DNA of 64,000 nt from Octopus vulgaris (Eukaryota): NCBI GenBank assembly GCA_951406725.2, contig OX597828.1, positions 63,116,001 through 63,180,000 of the forward strand. The letters are read 5' to 3'. This document shows positions 2,790 through 61,200 of this stretch, in pieces (within the stretch, counting starts at the first letter, position 1; every line of letters begins with the position of its first letter). The notes under the pieces are model-generated. The model did no database searches and was not told where the DNA came from. It was given only the letters and a program-made list of their open reading frames with translations. The position numbers were made by a program, and so were the translations under genes.

Positions 2790-3099
2790 TTGGTGTGTCA
2801 GACAAAATACTTTGCAGCATTTCTTCTGATTCTTTACATTCAAGGTTCAGATTCTGTGAATGTTGGTGTGCCTTTCATTCTTGGAGGGGTGGGTCATTGA
2901 AATATGTGCTAGTTGAGCATTGGGGGTCAGTGTATAACTGACTTACCCCTTCCCTCCCCTACAGTTGCTGGCTTTATGCCAAAATTTGAAATCATCAAAA
3001 GGTGCTGAGTTGGTTGTCTCAGTAGCACATCACTCAAGATACTAAGTGGTATTTCTTCTGGTACTTTTTGAGTTCAAATCCCATTGAAGTTGACTTTGC

Positions 3100-3101
<2 letters not shown>
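2790..3101 (+). mobile_element. Two adjacent decayed SINE pieces (AAGGCGGC-headed family); the second stops at the LINE junction
   Basis: Similar to the better preserved copy at 22281 (GAGTTCAAAT...GACTTTGC.TT, CCAAAATTTGAA tail). Confidence 0.6.
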
Positions 3102-8786
<5,685 letters not shown>

Positions 8787-8791
8787 CAAGA

Positions 8792-9106
8792 ATGTCCAGA
8801 ACCTGGAAACGTGACGAACTGGCGTGGTTCCTGCGAGGATGGCAATGCGCTGACGGAGAAAATCCAAATAATATAATTACGGCTGCGCTGAAGAACAACG
8901 GATACAAAAGGACGTCAGCTCAAATAGAGCGGAAGAAGCAAGAATTTATACGCTCCTACGCACTTGTCAGATCGCACATTAACACGCTGATGCCATTTTT
9001 GACAGCGAAAAACGCGCACAAAGTAAAGATGGCAAGGATAGAGACGCGGGCGCTGATGAGGAGGGTCACCCCCACCTGGTGGACACCCAGGAAGAAACTC
9101 CAGTGA
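8792..9106 (+). CDS. LINE ORF1 N-terminal part, 104 aa, trihelix Myb/SANT-like domain candidate
   Basis: [17 protein letters not shown]...[29 protein letters not shown] fits the trihelix pattern W-x3-E-x3-(L/F)L ... I-x2-L-x3-GY-x-R(T/S)-x2-Q-x3-K-x6-Y. Pattern recognition only. Confidence 0.6.
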
Positions 9107-9122
9107 GAGGCCTGCCCGGGAG

Positions 9123-9689
9123 ATGCAAACCCAGGTGCAAGATGCTCCTACCAGCACCAAAAGCCATGGACATGGAGATGAAAAAGAAGAAAAAAAGGAA
9201 GAAAAACTGAAGCTAAAACTCAGACAAAGCCAAAAGGGGCAAGGCAGCCAGGATAGAGGCAAACCTAACTATCCATATGCCAAAAAGGATGGAAACAAGC
9301 AGCGCACACGGGTGTGTAGGTTCTACCTGAAAGGTGCCTGCTGGCATGGAGAGGAAGGTGCAGGCTGCCGCTTTGCACATCCGGGACCCAGAGCCACAGA
9401 AACCAACCACCAAAAGGAAATGGGATGGACCACGCATCACCTGCCCCAAAACGGAGGTACGCAGATGTGGTGCGTACCACAACCACCAACATGTGTTGTT
9501 GAAAGAGCAGCTGCTGAGCAGGAATCTTTTTGTGCATGGCACAAAAGATTGTACAGCAGCCTAACCTGGCTCCATCAGGCTCAGGCTCGCAGATGGAACT
9601 GCCCACAGTTCACAAGACCGCCACAGCAGATGGACCCAGGGTGGACACCGCCGGCAACAGCATACACCTCACCTCGATGCTCCTACTGA
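9123..9689 (+). CDS. LINE ORF1 C-terminal part with CCCH zinc finger
   Basis: VCRFYLKGACWHGEEGAGCRFAHP (C-x7-C-x8-C-x3-H), preceded by a Lys/Glu-rich stretch. This frame is open back to 9060 and overlaps the upstream ORF. Confidence 0.7.
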   Translation: MQTQVQDAPTSTKSHGHGDEKEEKKEEKLKLKLRQSQKGQGSQDRGKPNYPYAKKDGNKQRTRVCRFYLKGACWHGEEGAGCRFAHPGPRATETNHQKEMGWTTHHLPQNGGTQMWCVPQPPTCVVERAAAEQESFCAWHKRLYSSLTWLHQAQARRWNCPQFTRPPQQMDPGWTPPATAYTSPRCSY

Positions 9690-12588
9690 ACATCAGAGGA
9701 CTACTAACACACAGTAACAGGACAAAAGTCCCGTTCCTGAGAGACTTTGTCGCATGCAATCAAGCCTTATGCATAGCACTTACGCAGAAACGCATCTGAA
9801 ACCGGACATAGCAGATGCGGAATTACACATACCACAGTATGTTGTACTACGGACCGACAGAAAAGAAAGGAGTCATGGAGGAGTTGCTATGTACATCCGT
9901 GGGGACCTCACACCCCAGGTCCTTTTGTCATACTCAAACTCGGTGTGTGACACACTAATTGTACATATAAGGCAACTTGATGTAGTTGTGTGTGCTACAT
10001 ATCGCCCTCCAGATGCCCCAAGTCATATGGGCAAGTTTGAAGACTGCCTTATAAAAATAGAAGAAGTTCTAATCACATTAGAACAACACATAAGTGTACT
10101 TCTCATGGGAGACTTCAATCTACCCAATGTCAGATGGCCCGAGGGCCTTTCTCTCCCAGGAATGACAAGATGTGAACGAGGACAGGCGAGGTCCCTCCTG
10201 AACCTCATCAACACCCTGTACATGGAGCAAGTAATACTCCAACCAACCAGAGCAGGTAACACACTGGATCTCTGCTTCACAAATAATATGGATCTCATCC
10301 ATAATGTGAAAGTGACACCGACACTACTCTCGGATCACAACATGGTAGAGCTGACCATGTACGGGCCAAAAGAGAGCACGGACATGCAGCCTACAAGAAA
10401 CCCTCAGAATCTTTCCAGCTTGAACTTCAATAAGGCAAACTGGAAACAAATTGAGAAAGAGATCCTCAAACAAAACTGGCCTGAATGTCTCTCCTCGCCG
10501 GACATCGACATGATACTTCAACAATTCATGTCTGTAATGCAAGCCATATGCTACAAATGTGTCCCAGAGAGAAAGGCCACTGTACACAAGAACAAAATCC
10601 CCAGAGAGAGGAAAATTTTAATGAGACGGCGTACAAAAATTTCAAATCGCCTAAACAAACAAATTGAAAGCAGTGAAAAGTCCCGCCTGAAAATAAAACT
10701 GTTGGAAATTGAAAATTGTCTGCAACTCTCCCATGAGAAGGAAAGAGCAGACAAAGAAGCCTGGGCTATAGACAACATAAAAACTAACCCCAGAGCTTTC
10801 TACAGGTATGCCAAAGAAACAGCTACGGTGCACTGTAGGATAGGGCCACTCCTTGAAAAGGATGGCACACTCACAGGAAAACCAATGAGGGTAAGTGAAA
10901 TACTGAATGAACAATTCAAGAGTGTTTTCACTCCACCCCTTGGGCATTTCCAAATCAGCAATCCAACTGACTTCTTTACCACTGCAGATATAGAATCAGA
11001 GGCGGCGACGATAAATTACATCGATATAAAGGAAGACGATGTAATAAAGGCTATAGATGAAATGAAAACAGACTCAGCTATTGGCCCCGATGGATTCCCG
11101 GCAATCCTCCTAAAAGTATGTAAGAGAGTCCTAGCAAGACCACTGCAGTTCCTCTTTCAGAGCTTCCTTGCAGCTGGCAAACTTCCAAGAAAACTGAAGG
11201 AAGGTAAAATATGCCCTATTCATAAAGGAGGTAGCAGAGCGGAGGCCAAGAACTACAGACCTATCTCTCTGACCTCACACATCAGCAAGGTCATGGAACG
11301 AATAGTCAGAAGGAAACTAATCACCTTCCTTGAAGAAAATGACTTGCTGCCTGACACCCAACATGGTTTCCCGACCAGGAAGAAGCTGCTTAACTCAGCT
11401 CCTGCAGCACTATGACTGGGTGCTGAAACAACTGCTCAACCACTCAAATGTGGAAGTCATATATCTCGACTTCGCAAAGGCCTTTCGATAAAGTCGATCA
11501 TGGAATGATATGTCACAAACTGCGTGATCTTGGCATAGTTGGAAAACTAGGAGAATGGCTTCATGACTTTCTGAAGAATAGAAGCATAGCAGCCAATGGG
11601 GCCACTTCCATTAGCACGCAAATAGTGAGCTCCACAGGGAGACCACTACTGTTCATAATGGCATGCCCTCAGCCACGCGGAGAGCCACGATCACAAGTTA
11701 TGCAGATGATACAAAAGTTTCACAGGATACAGAACCCTGAAGACACTAAGCACCTCAATGTGAGCTGGACGAAATATAGAATAGCATGCAGTTCAATGAA
11801 AAGTTTCAAGCTTTATACTATCAGCATGCAAGACTGAATGCAATACCCAATGAATACACTGGACCCGGAGGGATTGCAATCCCAGAGGCACAATCAGTGC
11901 GTGACCTGGGTATTCACATGAGTGATGACGCGACCTTTCATGTACATGTTGCTAAACTGACAATGAAATGCAGACGGCTGGCTGGCTGGATTCTTAGAAC
12001 CTTTAGAACAAGAGAACAAGAAACCATGATGGTCCTCTGGAAGACACTTGTCCTAAGCCACTTTGACTATTGCTCTCAGCTATGGTCACCATCCAGTGTC
12101 AAGTTGATCACAGAACTTGAGGCGATCCAACGAAGCTACACGAAGAAGATAGCCTCTATGCAGAATGTAAGCTACTGGGAGAGACTCAAGAGATTAAAGC
12201 TCTATTCCCTGAGCGTAGGCGAGAAAGATATGCCATAATATATATCTGGAAGATCCTGGAAGGTCTTGTCCCAGACTTTGGCATCGAGAGTCACACAAAC
12301 GCCAGAACCGGACGCCACTGCGTAGTACCAAGGACTCCAAATTTGCCATCAAGATGTAGAGAAGATATTGTGATAGCCTGGGCTTCAGAGGCCCACGGCT
12401 CTTCAATGTCCTCCCGAAGAACCTGAGGGACCTGCATGGTGTAGATGCGGATGTCTTTAAAGTAGGACTGGATCTCTTCCTGTCAGGTGTCCCTGATGAA
12501 CCAACTTCACGGCAGGAGGTGCAGATGAGGGCAGCTGCATCGAACTCTCTCATGCATCAGATGGCGTTTGCTAAAAAGCATCCGTGAG
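9677..12588 (+). pseudogene. CR1 ORF2 (APE endonuclease plus RT) with multiple frameshifts
   Basis: APE motifs LLLNIRGL, ETHL, DR..RSHGGVAMYI, YRPP, MGDFNLP, NTLDL and SDHN. RT motifs GPDG, NYRPISLTS and FDKVDH are split over ORFs 9530-9799, 9754-11415, 11448-11837 and 11786-12238. Confidence 0.9.
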
Positions 12589-12668
12589 GTAAACCCGTGT
12601 AGCAAACCAAATGGCGGTGCCACAGCATGGCCACAGCTCATTAGCTGAAACTGGAAAAATCAAAATCA

Positions 12669-14304
<1,636 letters not shown>

Positions 14305-15784
14305 CTAGCAGTATCGCCCGGCGTTGCTCGGGTTTGTAAGGGAAATAACTATATAAGCATTTTTAGAGAGTTATAGCCAAAAAATTGCAAAAAAATGCAT
14401 TAAAAATGGAAAAAAAATTAAGGTAAATTCTTTTAAAAAATCGTTGACACATCGTAGATATTTTTAGAGAGTTACTTCCCTTATATAATAGCGAAAAAAT
14501 GCATTAAAATGGAAAAATATGATGGTAAATTTTTTTTAAATCGTAGACTCATCGTAGACGCGCGCTAATACCCAGAAGGGCTCGATATGAATCACGACTA
14601 TAAGATACCCGGTTTTGGTTACACTGCACCGCAAAATGTGGGAGTGGTTACGAATCTAAATCGTAGGAGACAGACACACAACTTCGCTTTTACATATATA
14701 AAGATATAAGCCACGTAGTTATATACACATACTTTGTTATATACACATTCTGAAAAGAAAATGTTATTTTGAACACAACATTTATAAAGAATAAAATATT
14801 TTTTGGTTTTTCTTAACCCTTTCGTTACTATATTTCTGACCAAAATATGTGTTTCGATTAATTTCTAACGTAATCATAAATTTAGTCTGGTTTCATTAAA
14901 CAACTATAACTTTTTTATTTATCAATATATTAACATGAATTTCGGAAGATAATTTAATGAAATGTTCTCAACCAATTCTATACTATAATTTTTGTCACAA
15001 AGTGACTCTAATTGCAGGTAGATACAGGTAAATTCAACAAAATATAAAATTATTAAAATTTTGTTCAAACATCGCTATAGAAAATGGGTTATTAGCTAAT
15101 ATTCAATTGGGTATACAACAAAATTTTACGATAGAATTTGTTATTCTGGGTAACTTTCTGATACCCATAATAATATTTATGGCAAAATAGGCCTTAATTT
15201 CATTTAAGGTTGTGGGAAATAACAAACTATCCTTTCTTTCGTTTTGTTTACGTTTAGCGTAACAGTTCGTTTCCGCCGTAATGATTTCAAATGGGCTCAT
15301 TCGAAAAAGTAAAAAGAAATAGTCTAAGGCTTTACTCTTCTGGGAAAGTCTGTGGCTTGGTCCAGTTTCTTCAGAAAAATCACCGAAAGAAACAGTTTTT
15401 AAATTTTCACTCCATTCATGTGCCAATTCATTTTCTTTATCGCTGTCGGATTCACTGTTTTCACTTTAATCGTTGCAAACTTGCAAAGAGAAAGGAGAAA
15501 TTAGGGTGATAGCGTCAGTGAAACAGTTCGCTCCGTTTGTGTGTGTGTGCGTGTGCGTATGCTGTAGCCCACACTAAAAAAAGCATTTGACATACACACC
15601 ACAATGTGAGTTTTCTCTAAATTTTACTTAATTGGGGTTGAAATTTTAAAAACTGGACCTGGCACGACCCGATGCATTCTACTCTTAAAAATGCTAGGTA
15701 AATTGTAATTGAAGAAATCCTATATTGTAGATTTCTATAAGAGACAAAGGGAGGCAGATAAAATCTGCCTTTTATAATAAGAGA
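14305..15784 (-). mobile_element. Composite non-autonomous Helitron
   Basis: On the minus strand it starts A|TCTCTTATTATAAAAGGC (15784) and ends with hairpin CCCGAGCAACGCCGGG plus CTAG|T (14305). There is no TSD. A second Helitron-like 5' end (TCTTTATATATGTAAAAGCG) lies at 14704. Confidence 0.8.
15103..15426 (-). pseudogene. piggyBac (PGBD-like) transposase N-terminal fragment
   Basis: FSEETGP...ALDYFFLLF...IITAETNCYA...TTLNEIKAYFAINIIMGIRKLP matches the piggyBac N-terminal pattern. A piggyBac-like end TTAA|CCCTTTCGTTAC lies at 14813. Confidence 0.85.
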
Positions 15785-15798
15785 TATATATATGTATG

Positions 15799-15831
<33 letters not shown>

Positions 15832-16036
15832 CTGTATATATATATATGTATATATATATATGTATATATATATATGTATATATATATATGTATATATATA
15901 TATGTATATATATATATGTATATATATATGTATATATATATATGTATATATATATATGTATATATATATGTGTATATATATATGTATATATATATATGTA
16001 TATATATATATGTATATATATATGTATATATATATG

Positions 16037-16109
<73 letters not shown>

Positions 16110-16124
16110 GTATATATATATATG

Positions 16125-16155
<31 letters not shown>

Positions 16156-16156
16156 G

Positions 16157-16201
<45 letters not shown>

Positions 16202-16210
16202 GTATATATG

Positions 16211-16293
<83 letters not shown>

Positions 16294-16472
16294 GTATATA
16301 TGTATATATATGTATATATATATGTATATATATATGTATATATATGTATATATATATGTATATATATATGTATATATATATGTATATATATATATGTATA
16401 TATGTATATATATATGTATATATATATGTATATATATATATGTGTATATATATATGTATATATATATATGTG

Positions 16473-16503
<31 letters not shown>

Positions 16504-16608
16504 GTGTATATATATATATGTATATATATATGTATATGTATATATATACATGTATATATATATGTATATATATATGTATATGTATATATATACATGTATA
16601 TATATATG

Positions 16609-16643
<35 letters not shown>

Positions 16644-16663
16644 GTATATATATATATGTATAT

Positions 16664-16709
<46 letters not shown>

Positions 16710-16743
16710 GTATATATATACATGTATATATATATATGTATAT

Positions 16744-16793
<50 letters not shown>

Positions 16794-16934
16794 GTATATA
16801 TATATATACATGTATCTATATATATATATATATACATGTATATATATATATGTATATATATATATACATGTATCTATATATGTATATATATATATGTATA
16901 TATATATATGTATATATATATACATGTATATATA

Positions 16935-16977
<43 letters not shown>

Positions 16978-17351
16978 ATATATATGTATATATATATATA
17001 TACATGTATATATATGTATATATATATGTATATATATATGTATATATATATGTATATATATATGTATATATATATGTATATATATATATGTGTATATATA
17101 TATGTATATATATATGTATATATATATATGTATATATATATGTATATATATATGTATATATATATGTATATATATATGTATATATATGTGTATTATATAT
17201 ATATGTATATATATATGTATATATATGTGTATGTATATATATGTATATATGTATGTATATATATGTATATATATGTATATATATATGTATATATATGTAT
17301 ATATATATGTATATATATGTATATATATATATGTATATATATGTATATATA
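15785..17351. repeat. About 1.6-kb (TA)n array with TATG/CATG variants
   Basis: Direct reading of the sequence. Confidence 0.98.
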
Positions 17352-17533
17352 TCATCATCATCATCATCATCGTTTAACGTCCGTTTTCCGCGCTAGCACG
17401 GGTTGGACGGTTTCGACCGGGGTCTGGGGAGCTCGGGACTGCCCCAGGCTCCAGTCTAGTCTGGCAGTGCTTCTACAGCTGGATGCCCTTCCTAACGCCA
17501 ACCACTCCGCGAGTGTAGTGGGTGTTTTTTACG
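17352..17533 (-). mobile_element. Short 3'-end copy of the RTE family with (GAT)n tail
   Basis: The reverse complement matches 61195-61370 (GAGTGGTTGGCGTTAGGAAGGGCATCCAGCTGTAGAA...CGGACGTTAAACGATGATG). Confidence 0.85.
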
Positions 17534-17935
17534 TATATATGTATATATATGTATATATATATGTATATATATGAATATATATATGAATATATATATGAAT
17601 ATATATATGAATATATATATGTATATATATGTATATATGTATATATATATGTATATATATATATATGTGTGTATATATATATGTGTATATATATATGTAT
17701 ATATATATATGTGTATATATATATGTATATATATATATATATATACATATATATGTGTGTATATATATGTGTATATATGTATATATATGTGTATATATGT
17801 GTATATATATGTGTATATATGTATATATATGTGTATTTATATATATGTGTATATATATATGTATATATATATGTATATATATATATATGTGTATATATAT
17901 ATGTATATATATATATATGTGTATATATATATATG

Positions 17936-17966
<31 letters not shown>

Positions 17967-18034
17967 GTGTATATATATATATATGTGTATATATATATGT
18001 GTATATGTATATATATATGTGTATATATATATAT

Positions 18035-18072
<38 letters not shown>

Positions 18073-18122
18073 GTATATATATATGTGTATATATATGTAT
18101 GTATATGTATATATATGTATAT
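17534..18122. repeat. (TA)n/(TG) compound array
   Basis: Direct reading of the sequence. Confidence 0.97.
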
Positions 18123-19030
18123 AAAATCATCATCATTATGTAGATGAGAGAGAGATAAGTAGTAGTAGTAGTTGTAGTCGTCAAGGTAATGTTCTTAAAA
18201 TAATGCCTTAACCTATAGTTTAATACATAAATCAGAATTGCTATTTCTAGACTAGTAAAGGAAGCTTGAAATAGTATATTAAAATGAGCTGATGTTACTA
18301 ATATGAATTATCTACTCTATGGAGATAATTATCATTAAATACTTAAACTGTATTTGTAAAACAAGAGTGAAACCTGTCCTCGTTCTTTTGAAGGACATAA
18401 CAAAAAATAAGTTTGTATTTATATTTGTTTCTCTACATTTGTTCATTCCTTTTATGTCCTTTTGTTTTTTCATGCTAGTATAGGTTTTGGACAGTTATTT
18501 GTGACAGGATTTTATGGCTGGATACTCTCTTTGTCACCGACCCTTATCTATTTTCAAGTGAGGGATACATTATTCGTGAAGTGTGGAGCAACCATTCCCA
18601 ATGTCAACATCCCCACCACTTTGCTTAAGCTGTGACAAGTATGAAATCGCAATGTCTATGCACATTTGAATGCACAAACAAACACTTGTACAGAAATGTA
18701 TGTTTGATGTGATGTGGTGGTTTTTGTCTAATACTGTTTTAGTTTAGTCACAGAGATTGAAGGTGTTCCAGTTATGATGGCTGAACATGTCACCTGATTC
18801 TGCACTTTAAAGACTTCTTTGAACCCTTTACTGTCCAACCTATACCAGCATGGAAAACAGAAGTTAAACATTGATAAGGATTTATATATATCCATATATA
18901 TTATGCATAAGATGTTCAGACTAAATTTGCCAGTTTACATAAAAGGAAAAGAAAACAATGTCCCATTCGAATATAAAAGTGTTTTAACAATCACAAAATC
19001 TGAACTAGATTATGGTGGAGAGGTAACATT

Positions 19031-57610: not shown

Positions 57611-58249
57611 ATATATACTGTAAACTACGAACACAAAAGATGATGCATCACAGATAAGCATTCCTTTAAATTCAACCCGTTTAACTACCATGTATTTCTG
57701 CGCGATTGATTAACCTTTATTAGTTTATCTCTCTTCTGTTTTACTCAGGTTAAATATATAACTCTATAGTTCCTTCTTACTTATCGATGTCTAAGATAAA
57801 TTTAACTCGTGTATTTCCCCTAAATTTGCAACACTCATGAAAGTCCATCACACAGACATTTAGTCTCCAATTTTGTCTTAGACTGGCTCTCAGATTCTTC
57901 AATTCTATCTACTATTACCAACATTTGCTGTCCCGTTAAATTAACTATCTCTCTCTCTCTCAATTATGTTTCTTAATACCTACAACGAAAAAATACCTTC
58001 CCCAAGAGATGCGCCCCTTCATGGTTGCTAGTTTTCGCAGTGCTCCCGCCCTCCCACCCCTCCACCTGTAGCGGAAGTCCCAATTTTGTCATCCTTGGTT
58101 GTCTCATGAACACTTCTAAAGGCTTCTGCCACCCCCACCTCCTGCTATATAAGGTAGTGATCATACAGTGGCAAAATATGATAGTGTAGTGTACGCGGTT
58201 TGAACTTAAGTCTATTGTTGTTTGCCTATGAATCCTGCCAAATGTGAGC

Positions 58250-61200
58250 TCTCTTTTCAGGTACATGATGCTGCAGTCCCCCGCCCCAGGGTCTCAAGGC
58301 CTCATACCTCCCACACCCTCAGGGTTGGCACTCTCAACGTTGACACACTGAAAAGTAGGTCTGGTGAGATTGTTGAGATGCTTGAACGGAGATGTGTTGA
58401 TATGTGCTGCATCCAAGAATTTAGGTGGAGAGGAGGTTCTGCTAGGTTCCTCACAGGCAAAGAACACTGGTACAAGATTTTCTGGGCTGGGCACACTGAC
58501 GGGGTTGAGGGTGTGGGTATACTTCTTGCAGAGAAATGGGTAGATAAGGTAATTGAGGTAGTCAGAGTATGCGACAGAATACTTAAGATTAGATTAGTGC
58601 TCCACCATGGGTTAGCAACCATTATCTTGGCCTATGTCCCTCAGCCAGGGCTACCCGATGGACAGAAAGACCGATTCTATGATACCCTCTTGCAGACTAC
58701 CGCGTTGACGAATGACAGGGACCTTCTCTTTGTGGCTGGTGACTTCAATGGACATGTTGTCAGCATTTCGGGGGCTTCCATGGCATACATGGAGGCTACG
58801 GTTTTGGCTCTCGCAATGAGCAGGGAACCAGACTGCTGGAGTTCCGTGATGCAAATGATCTTATGGTTTGCAATACTAACTTCAGAAAACCTGCCAGCCA
58901 CCTAGTCACCCACCGCTCCGGCAGACACACTAGTCAGATTGACTACATCCTCACTAGAAAAAGGGAAAGATGGCTGCTTATAAACGCCAAAACCTTCCCG
59001 GGTGAAGAATGTACCCCACAACATAGACTGGTAGTTAATGACTTCTGGGTAAGGGCTAAATGGATGCCCAGAAGACGACCAGCAAGGAGAAGAAGGGTCT
59101 GGAGACTTAAAGATCCCGCAAATGGACAGAGATTTAGAGACATATTACTCGAAGCTTTTGACGAAATAGAAGGGGATATAGCTTCACATGAGATAGAAGA
59201 CAACTGGAGGTTCCTAGGGGACAACTTGCTAAGGGCCACCAACCAGATCTGTGGATGGTGCGAAGTCCCCTCTAGACACAAAATACCATGGTGGTGGAAC
59301 AATATTGTTGACAGGGTTATTAGACAAAAGAAACAGGCTTGGAAGAACGGAGGTAGCAGGGAATTGTATCAGACTGCCAGAAGGGAAGCTAGGAGGTAGG
59401 TTTATTTAGCCAGAGGGGAAGCAGATAAGGAAAAATTTGCCAGTGTTCTGTGCTGTGAGGATGAAAAACTCGAGGTATTTCGTGTTGCAAGACAGTGTGT
59501 GAGAGAGAATCGTGATGTGGTAGGAGAGAAATGTGTTCGCATGGATGATGGTTCACTTGCGCTAAATGAGGATGCAAACAGAGAGGTTTGGAGACGCCAC
59601 TATGAAAGGTTGCTGAATAAAGAAAATGAATGGGATAAAGAGATTCTGCCGAATGTCAACCCAACAGAGGGACCAGTTATCCGAGTTGACAGTTCCTTGG
59701 TAGTTAAGGCAATTAGAAGCATGAAGACAGGGAAAGCCCCAGGCCCATCATGAATTACTGCAGAGATGCTCAAAATATCTGGCAGTGTCAGCTATAGCCT
59801 AGTCACCTGTATAGTTAACCAGGTGATACACGAAGGAGTCATACCCAATGACTGGTGTAGCAGCATACTAGTCAACTGCTACAAAGGTAAAGGTGATGCC
59901 TTAGATACAAATAATTACAGAGGTATCAAGCTGTTGGATCAGGTAATGAAGGTTACGGAGAGGGTCATAGCCCAACTGATTAGGGAGAGAGTCAACTTGG
60001 ATGAGATGCAGTTTGGTTTCGTGCCAGGGAAAAGCTCCACTGATGCCATATTTCTGGTGAGACAGCTGCAGGAGAAATACCTAGCCAAAGATAAGCCCCT
60101 GTACTTGGCTTTCGTTGACATGGAGAAAGCCTTTGACAGGGTCCCCCGATCCCTTATCTGGTGGTCAATGAGGAAACTAGGGATAGATGAATGGTTAGTG
60201 AGATCTGTGCAAGCCATGTACAGGGACGCTGTAAGTAAGGTAAGGGTTGGCAACGAGTACACTGAAGAATTCAAGTTAGAGGTTGGGGTCCACCAGGGTT
60301 CAGTCCTCAGCCCCCTCCTATTTATCATAGTCTTCCAGGCCATGCTACATGGTAGTGAAACATGGGCTGTGACTGCTGAGGATATGCGTAAGCTCACAAG
60401 GAATGAAGCCAGTATGCTCCGATGTATGTGTATGTCAGTGTGCATACTCAACAGAGTGTAAGTACCTTGAGAGAAATGTTGACCTAAGAAGCATCAGATG
60501 TGGTGTGCAAGAGAGACGACTGCACTGGTATGGTCATGTGGCGAGAATGGATGAGGATAGCTGTGTGAAAAAGTGCCACACCCTAGCGGTTGAGGGAACC
60601 TGTGGAAGAGGTAGACCCAGGAAGACCTGGGATGAAGTGGTGAAGCATGACCTTCAATCATTAGGCTTCACCAAGGAAATGACTAGTGACCGAGACCTTT
60701 GGAAATATGCTGTGCTCGAGAAGACCCGGCAAGCCAGATGAGACCATAACCTGTGGCCTATGCCAGGAGCATAACCTGCCCACTCATGCATACCTTTTCC
60801 TTCTTTGGTCACTAAACTTTGCTTGCAAAAAACCTGTTGAGGCAAGTGAAATCAAAATCAAAATCATTTCGATGACTGGCATCCGTGCTAGCGGGGTGCA
60901 AAGAGCACCATACGAGTGTGATCGTTGACAGAGCGGCGGCTATTTGAGTATGATTGTTACCAGCGTCGCCTTACTGGCACTTATGCCTATGCTAGTAGGG
61001 TGCCAAGAACACCATCCGAGCGTGATTGTTGCCAGAGGAGCCAACTGGCTTCTGTACCCGTAGAACGTAAAAGGGCACCATTGGAGCGTGATCGTGACCA
61101 ACATCGCTTGACTGGCCCCTGTGCCGGTGGCACGTGTAAAATGATTCGAGCGAGGTCATTGCCAGTACCTCCTGACTGGCCTTGTGCCGGTGGCACGTAA

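Follow-up and report, generated by a model that had tools for sequence, protein, structure and literature searches.

The ORF1 proteins of LINEs are regarded as RNA chaperones, and the PHD fingers found in them are a proposed link to chromatin. The survey of 448 Jockey-superfamily elements by Metcalfe and Casane 2014 (PMC4120745) lists for the CR1/L2 ORF1 (Table 1) only PHD, RRM, CCHC, Tnp22, coiled-coil, zf/lz and esterase components, describes ORF1 domain shuffling as the rule and suggests general genome targeting for the ORF1 PHD; within the accessible portion of its text, the terms CCCH, Myb and SANT have no occurrence. The Octopus CR1 clusters reported by Martelossi et al. 2023 (PMC10294476), whose reverse transcriptase (RT), compared by eye, is closely similar to that of the element described here, were classified by their RT domains, with ORF1 appearing once in the main text and the octopus ORF1 left undescribed in the available parts of that article.

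The window analysed here (64,000 nt of Octopus vulgaris DNA) contains a 3.9-kb LINE copy with APE endonuclease and reverse transcriptase, placed between two (TA)n arrays, and a second copy of the same family. The features on which the following argument is built are given below (coordinates, strand, description and, where appropriate, evidence).

8787..12668, plus strand: CR1-clade LINE copy (endonuclease and RT Pfam matches; 89% identity to the second copy; RT likeness)
3091..4835, plus strand: second copy of the CR1 family, 5'-truncated and without ORF1, with a TCAA-repeat tail followed by (TA)n
4835..8786, no strand: (TA)n/(TATG)n array on the 5' side of the first copy, interrupted by a short repeat near 5630-5990
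12668..14304, no strand: (TA)n array directly after the 3' end of the first copy (sequence)
8792..8988, plus strand: ORF1 N-terminal Myb/SANT/trihelix-like domain, predicted, residues 1-65 (AlphaFold2, fold matches, PF13837 E 0.061, synonymous excess)
8989..9314, plus strand: ORF1 linker, acidic then Lys/Arg-rich (indels, stop-free path, composition like that of relatives, predicted disorder)
9315..9380, plus strand: single CCCH-type zinc finger (PF00642 E 0.0018, 18.6 bits; same spacing in four intact relatives)
9458..9472, plus strand: Y-A-D-V/A-V motif, in a frame that differs from that of the finger (present in P0007, P0015, P0023 and P0026)
9498..9587, plus strand: conserved C-terminal helix, predicted to be amphipathic (tblastn with P0015, P0023 and P0026; helix in the P0023 model; heptad check)
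9677..12587, plus strand: broken ORF2 with APE endonuclease and reverse transcriptase, candidate ATG at 9677

When 1.84 billion representatives were searched with a profile restricted to residues 1-66, 26 matched, among which four (P0015, 371 aa; P0023, 291 aa; P0024, 262 aa, from O. vulgaris; P0026, 289 aa) have a complete finger downstream in the same frame, and one (P0007) a degenerate finger with two Cys lost. The initial annotation had suggested that a trihelix Myb/SANT-like domain and a CCCH finger are combined in one LINE ORF1 and that frame repair could give a protein of about 300 aa; the four natural single-frame proteins (262-371 aa) bear out the combination and the size, and show the fusion without any frame repair. 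We are thus very confident of an ORF1 architecture in which a Myb-type domain and a CCCH finger reside in one protein. As tblastn of the relatives against the window places domain, finger and C-terminal helix (the last present in 3 of the 4 finger-bearing proteins) collinearly, we infer that the four intact proteins are themselves LINE ORF1s. With pairwise identities of only 19-34% among the four, and with finger-bearing rows in both branches of the main split of the domain tree (support 83/89, not starred), the layout looks old in the family. The remaining 22 matches, which have no complete finger, are mostly short (P0003, 277 aa, continues without a finger), and these finger-less relatives are read as probable broken copies; P0027 (a multi-repeat PF13837 protein) and P0028 (a repeat protein), which are among the 26, were taken as unrelated or remote. 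A word-index search with the 209-aa finger ORF among longer proteins found none in 972 candidates, one with the 5-protein alignment recovered only 2 of its own members, and an Atlas search with P0023 gave no usable match. The sole locus of a metagenome scan (L001, 266-1198, on a contig of 1.5 kb) was rejected, as its 310-aa ORF encodes four CCCH fingers, lacks the N-terminal domain and is unrelated.

The N-terminal segment is found in other copies, and the motif by which it had been recognised (W..E..FL / I..AL...GY.RT..QI..K......Y) is present and conserved among 23 aligned relatives (W5 14/17, L33 20/22, R40 21/23, Q44 20/23, K48 22/23, Y56 22/23). In the best-supported 40 of 174 rows, 12 substitutions fall in 8792-8988 (9 of them at third positions), and because 8 of these 12 are synonymous (22% expected, p ~0.001 among the substitutions listed) the domain is under purifying selection. 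The Myb-type fold that the initial annotation had anticipated is recovered by AlphaFold2 (23 sequences; helices 7-19, 25-35 and 42-63; pLDDT 87), with helix 3 extending a few codons into the next frame, and by structural matches of the predicted model, which shows a three-helix helix-turn-helix fold with a moderate Z (7.6, rmsd 2.5, 58 aligned residues). The first three VIA ranks are the RAD MYB (Z 7.6), the DNAJC2 SANT (Z 7.0) and GT-1 (Z 7.0), and the best 50 rows are mostly Myb, SANT, TEA or homeodomains (TEA and homeodomains scoring up to Z 6.9); the best Z is below 8, a level that small helical folds, according to the tool, commonly reach. The top Foldseek match is the GT-1 trihelix domain (TM 0.66, E 1.1, with all E values at or above 1.1), rows 1-5 for the Atlas model of P0003 match PF13837 clusters (TM 0.64-0.68), and the best hit of an Atlas feature search with the domain (0.84) serves as a lead only.

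With regard to Pfam, the expected Myb_DNA-bind_4 family (PF13837) is indeed the one weakly matched by most members (6/23), but the scores (14.2 bits and E 0.061 for the window, 19.2 bits for the best relative) stay below its cut-off of 27 bits. A sequence search of solved structures with the family profile returned chance matches only and no solved Myb, and against a true PF13837 protein the profile produced only a 23-column match (3.7% probability). Canonical Myb repeats have three regularly spaced tryptophans, two of which are absent here: W5 is kept and a second W stands at 17, with N/I and K at the helix-2 and helix-3 positions. In trihelix domains of the Myb_DNA-bind_4 type the third helix is long, with the motif G-Y/F-x-R-S/T-x-x-Q followed later by a Tyr, features that the family also shows (helix 42-63; G37, R40, Q44, K48 and Y56 conserved). 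Furthermore, the conserved basic or polar residues of helix 3 (R40, Q44, R47, K48 and K49) and the positive net charge of the domain in 22/23 rows would fit nucleic-acid binding. Taken together, the models make it highly probable that the domain has a Myb-type fold, apparently of the trihelix type in its predicted structure and not filed under PF13837, and by analogy it probably binds DNA.

The linker that follows the domain is spread over three frames in the window copy, its predicted disorder coming from the model of P0023. The finger has three Cys and one His with flanking aromatics, spaced C-x7-C-x8-C-x3-H, in the window and the four intact relatives (5/5); it departs from the canonical PF00642 spacing (C-x8-C-x5-C-x3-H) and from the 20.5-bit cut-off (18.6 bits), and is, by its sequence pattern, a non-canonical finger of the CCCH type. 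At the second position past the second Cys, all 5 aligned relatives (including P0007) share an additional His, which may represent an alternative zinc ligand. The C-terminal helix, split over two frames in the window copy, shows a 3-4 hydrophobic repeat over four heptads in 3/3 proteins checked, and is thus a predicted oligomerisation or coiled-coil helix. The full-length model of P0023 (built on 5 sequences, mean pLDDT 58) runs from the domain through a linker of low confidence (78-171) to the finger and the helix (236-275, pLDDT near 85). The heptad helix, absent from the initial annotation, would complete an ORF1 of about 300 aa.

In the window copy itself the reading frame is heavily disturbed. 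The 104-aa ORF that had been proposed does start with an ATG at 8792 and runs for 104 codons to 9106, but only residues 1-65 are in frame: other copies have an extra base after 8988 (in 4/4 runs), homology of the ORF to P0003 ends at residue 66, and under a family profile from which the window was left out the alternative frame reaches 118 bits as against 109 for the annotated one, and residues 66-104 are for these reasons off-frame; the alternative frame also has the acidic composition of the relatives. The microsatellite ORF from 7079, at the end of which it had been placed, is an artefact, as (TA)n contains no stops. The ATG does lie 5 nt past the end of the (TA)n (8786), but contigs of other copies (public runs; 3 records) reach ~33-83 nt further upstream than 8787, so that the element start is probably not at 8787, the window copy is probably cut inside the 5' UTR, and this truncation would account for the closeness of the ATG to the edge. 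As for the ORF at 9060-9689, it holds one CCCH-type finger (9315-9380), but much of its 209 aa is off-frame, and in place of the single frameshift that had been assumed in the 9060-9106 overlap, contigs of other copies from public runs differ from the window at 8 indel places between 8988 and 9250 (after 8988 and at 9094, 9126, 9139, 9183, 9187, 9234 and 9250), followed by no fewer than 4 others as far as 9560 (9391, 9480, 9526 and 9560), i.e. at least 12 listed.

Long contigs in runs X9, X17 and X20 cover 9018-9345 with 9 gaps, and their net of -5 carries the frame into the finger. The indel-guided frame path (with X at the breaks) is stop-free over 8792-9478, which ~2/100 random paths achieve, and the joined product aligns with P0015 over residues 8-287 (E 3e-32). 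After 9478 the path departs from homology and, with the indels listed, runs into a stop at 9562; the list probably lacks one indel near 9480, and the C-terminal part of ORF1 beyond 9478 is still placed by homology. Overlapping contigs tile 8863-9370, and others bridge the end of ORF1 into ORF2. Contig depth, which does not measure copy number, goes up about tenfold beyond 9286. Many contigs join the window sequence only from 9284, preceded by a shared different sequence, and may come from a subfamily with another linker or N-terminal half and a common finger and ORF2.

The LINE copy at 8787-12668 is, as read from its sequence, a broken octopus CR1 LINE with many indels. The assignment to the CR1 LINEs of octopus follows from the origin of the ORF1 relatives (5/5 named ones looked up are from Octopus vulgaris or O. 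sinensis) and from the match of its RT to Octopus clusters classed as Jockey/CR1. In the alignment of Martelossi et al. 2023 the RT agrees almost letter for letter with O.sinensis_104_LINE and its kin (a likeness judged by eye and not from a tree of our own), a 6-residue RT motif occurs in at least 20 sequences, all from Octopus, in the part of the alignment available (PMC10294476), and six of the motif-bearing clusters with checked rows in Table S7 are classed Jockey/CR1, the clusters near-identical to the window RT being tree-classed CR1. Endonuclease (PF14529, E 2.6e-11, in ORF2 of the first copy) and RT (PF00078, E 4.9e-24, in the second copy) follow each other in the order expected of a CR1-clade LINE, and a CR1-type short tandem 3' tail is present (TCAA repeats in the second copy, degenerate in the first). 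The two copies are 89% identical, with 18 gaps across ORF2 and the 3' end, and the gaps in the window copy may be decay or assembly error, which look alike in the sequence. The start of the second copy (3080-3100) lies inside short-repeat-like sequence that is not (TA)n, with few shared letters at the junction. The candidate ORF2 ATG (9677) overlaps the ORF1 stop (9687-9689) by 13 nt (9677-9689); the C-terminal residues of P0015 are compatible with the same overlap, and this, judged from protein only, hints at coupled translation. Rfam gave 0 matches on 2800-19000 of the window, and the 3' motif had no match among the prokaryote genomes or viral contigs searched.

On the basis of this layout, we propose that ORF1p packages the element RNA and docks generally on chromosomes via its Myb domain, a reading drawn by analogy to which we give an even chance. 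The protein (~260-370 aa) would comprise a predicted Myb/trihelix-type domain, a charged linker predicted to be disordered, a CCCH-type finger and, at the C-terminus, a helix predicted to form a coiled coil. If it behaves like the ORF1 proteins of other LINEs, it would self-associate through this C-terminal helix and hold the element's own RNA with its finger and basic linker (RNA binding by a lone CCCH finger being weak), and the basic third helix would read double-stranded DNA with a broad or AT-rich preference. The Myb domain could then dock the RNA-protein particle on chromosomal DNA, taking the position that a PHD reader has in other CR1/L2 ORF1s, and the ORF2p endonuclease, not ORF1, would pick the cut, after which ORF2p would nick and copy. 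A more specific role, in which the Myb domain recognises (TA)n or a comparable AT-rich sequence and directs insertion to such microsatellites, is suggested by the surroundings of the copies: three long (TA)n arrays make up 12% of the window, both CR1 copies end directly at one of them (a random place would lie that near in ~2.4/100 cases each), and a second, broken LINE with endonuclease and RT (58210-60738), presumably RTE-like by its motifs, has no TA flanks in the stretches examined. R2 elements, moreover, put their N-terminal Myb domain on the target DNA (PMC11204384, in its accessible part). Against it, the two copies, being neighbours, do not count as independent cases, the second has no (TA)n on its 5' side, and unrelated repeats adjoin the same arrays, such as that at 14305-15780, which has (TA)n on both sides and contains a piggyBac-type transposase piece (15106-15465, minus strand, PF13843 E 2.7e-07). 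The start of this repeat may be Helitron-like. Furthermore, a (TA)n array can arise by expansion of a tail once the element has inserted, and the site of APE-type LINEs is usually set by the endonuclease, both of which argue against steering. The two neighbouring copies, with unrelated repeats also beside (TA)n, thus speak weakly for (TA)n targeting, and we consider it unlikely that a CR1 lineage captured a trihelix domain into ORF1 and that the particle is steered to (TA)n by this domain instead of the endonuclease.

The domain could also be a protein- or RNA-binding module that binds ORF2p or host chromatin factors, or aids the finger with RNA, a role with which the SANT domains among the top fold matches, the absence of two of the three canonical Myb tryptophans and the ability of Harbinger Myb-like proteins to bind both DNA and transposase (PMC9392472, available part) would agree. 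The conserved basic and polar helix 3 suits nucleic acid better than a SANT-type function, DNA and RNA not being separated by this. As the SANT surface is acidic, in contrast to the basic helix 3, such a module seems to us rather improbable. Trihelix domains are typical of transcription factors, and other copies seem to carry a 5' extension, both compatible with an ORF1p that regulates itself, its Myb domain binding the element's own 5' promoter and tuning transcription. Harbinger Myb proteins likewise bind the ends of their own element (PMC9392472, same part). The 5' UTR has, however, probably been lost from the window copy. As we also know of no LINE ORF1p that acts as its own promoter regulator, we regard self-regulation as a distinctly improbable account. 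Weak Pfam and Foldseek statistics would be expected if the domain were a chance, generic three-helix match, or the segment a piece of another element lying before the LINE; against such a patchwork stand the four natural single-frame proteins, the contigs that tile 8863-9370 or bridge the end of ORF1 into ORF2, and the agreement of the Atlas model, Pfam and VIA on the same fold family. This explanation is largely refuted for the fusion, and scarcely credible overall.

With a DNA-binding-type fold in an ORF1, the question whether ORF1p has a part in landing-site choice, which is of long standing, becomes testable on a domain of 75 residues. The layout is new to the ORF1 catalogue and belongs to an abundant octopus family, ORF1 shuffling being already so well known that the surprise is limited. 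If (TA)n steering were true, target choice would be made by a sequence-specific DNA-binding ORF1p, which could partly account for the clustering of these elements in the very large TA arrays that octopus genomes contain, and the domain would represent a swappable targeting part for RNA-based gene insertion. In the openly accessible literature searched, no Myb or CCCH domain was described in a CR1 ORF1; the accessible parts of two octopus repeat papers (PMC9115989, PMC8967140) are without this ORF1, and that of PMC5786205 holds nothing on it. We therefore consider the ORF1 layout real, conserved and apparently undescribed, within a known CR1 clade and with prior annotation in Repbase or Dfam being possible.

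Among known systems, R2 resembles the octopus LINE as a non-LTR element that pairs a Myb domain with zinc fingers, there on target DNA, but it has a single ORF in which CCHH/CCHC fingers precede the Myb domain, its endonuclease is restriction-like and its target in the rDNA is fixed (PMC11204384, available part), whereas in octopus the Myb domain and a CCCH-type finger form a separate ORF1, and the neighbouring endonuclease is of the APE type. The same predicted fold, N-terminal and with a long third helix, is found in the Myb/SANT-trihelix proteins of PIF/Harbinger elements and in MSANTD/NAIF1 (PMC9392472, as far as accessible). Fold and long third helix are shared also with plant GT-1 trihelix (2jmw). 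Unlike the Harbinger Myb-like genes, the octopus ORF1 has as its neighbour an ORF2 with endonuclease and RT, and not a DDE transposase between terminal inverted repeats. To our knowledge, no Harbinger or trihelix protein has a CCCH finger. None of the 26 profile matches looks like a Harbinger protein, and a Harbinger-type protein as donor of the Myb domain is a guess. As regards the CR1/L2 ORF1 components, RRM, CCHC, Tnp22, PHD and esterase gave no Pfam match at E 0.5 in the four intact proteins, in whose sequences no CCHC or PHD ligand pattern occurs, and with no folded beta domain in the P0023 model (shallow alignment) a hidden RRM is unlikely. The octopus element is nevertheless like the CR1/L2 elements with ORF1 types I-V in being a two-ORF CR1 LINE with a modular ORF1, and, judged by the accessible part of the survey (PMC4120745), this ORF1 would fall in 'type V, unclassified', its layout being comparable to theirs, with an N-terminal genome-reading module (PHD in the CR1/L2 types), an RNA-binding part and a coiled coil.
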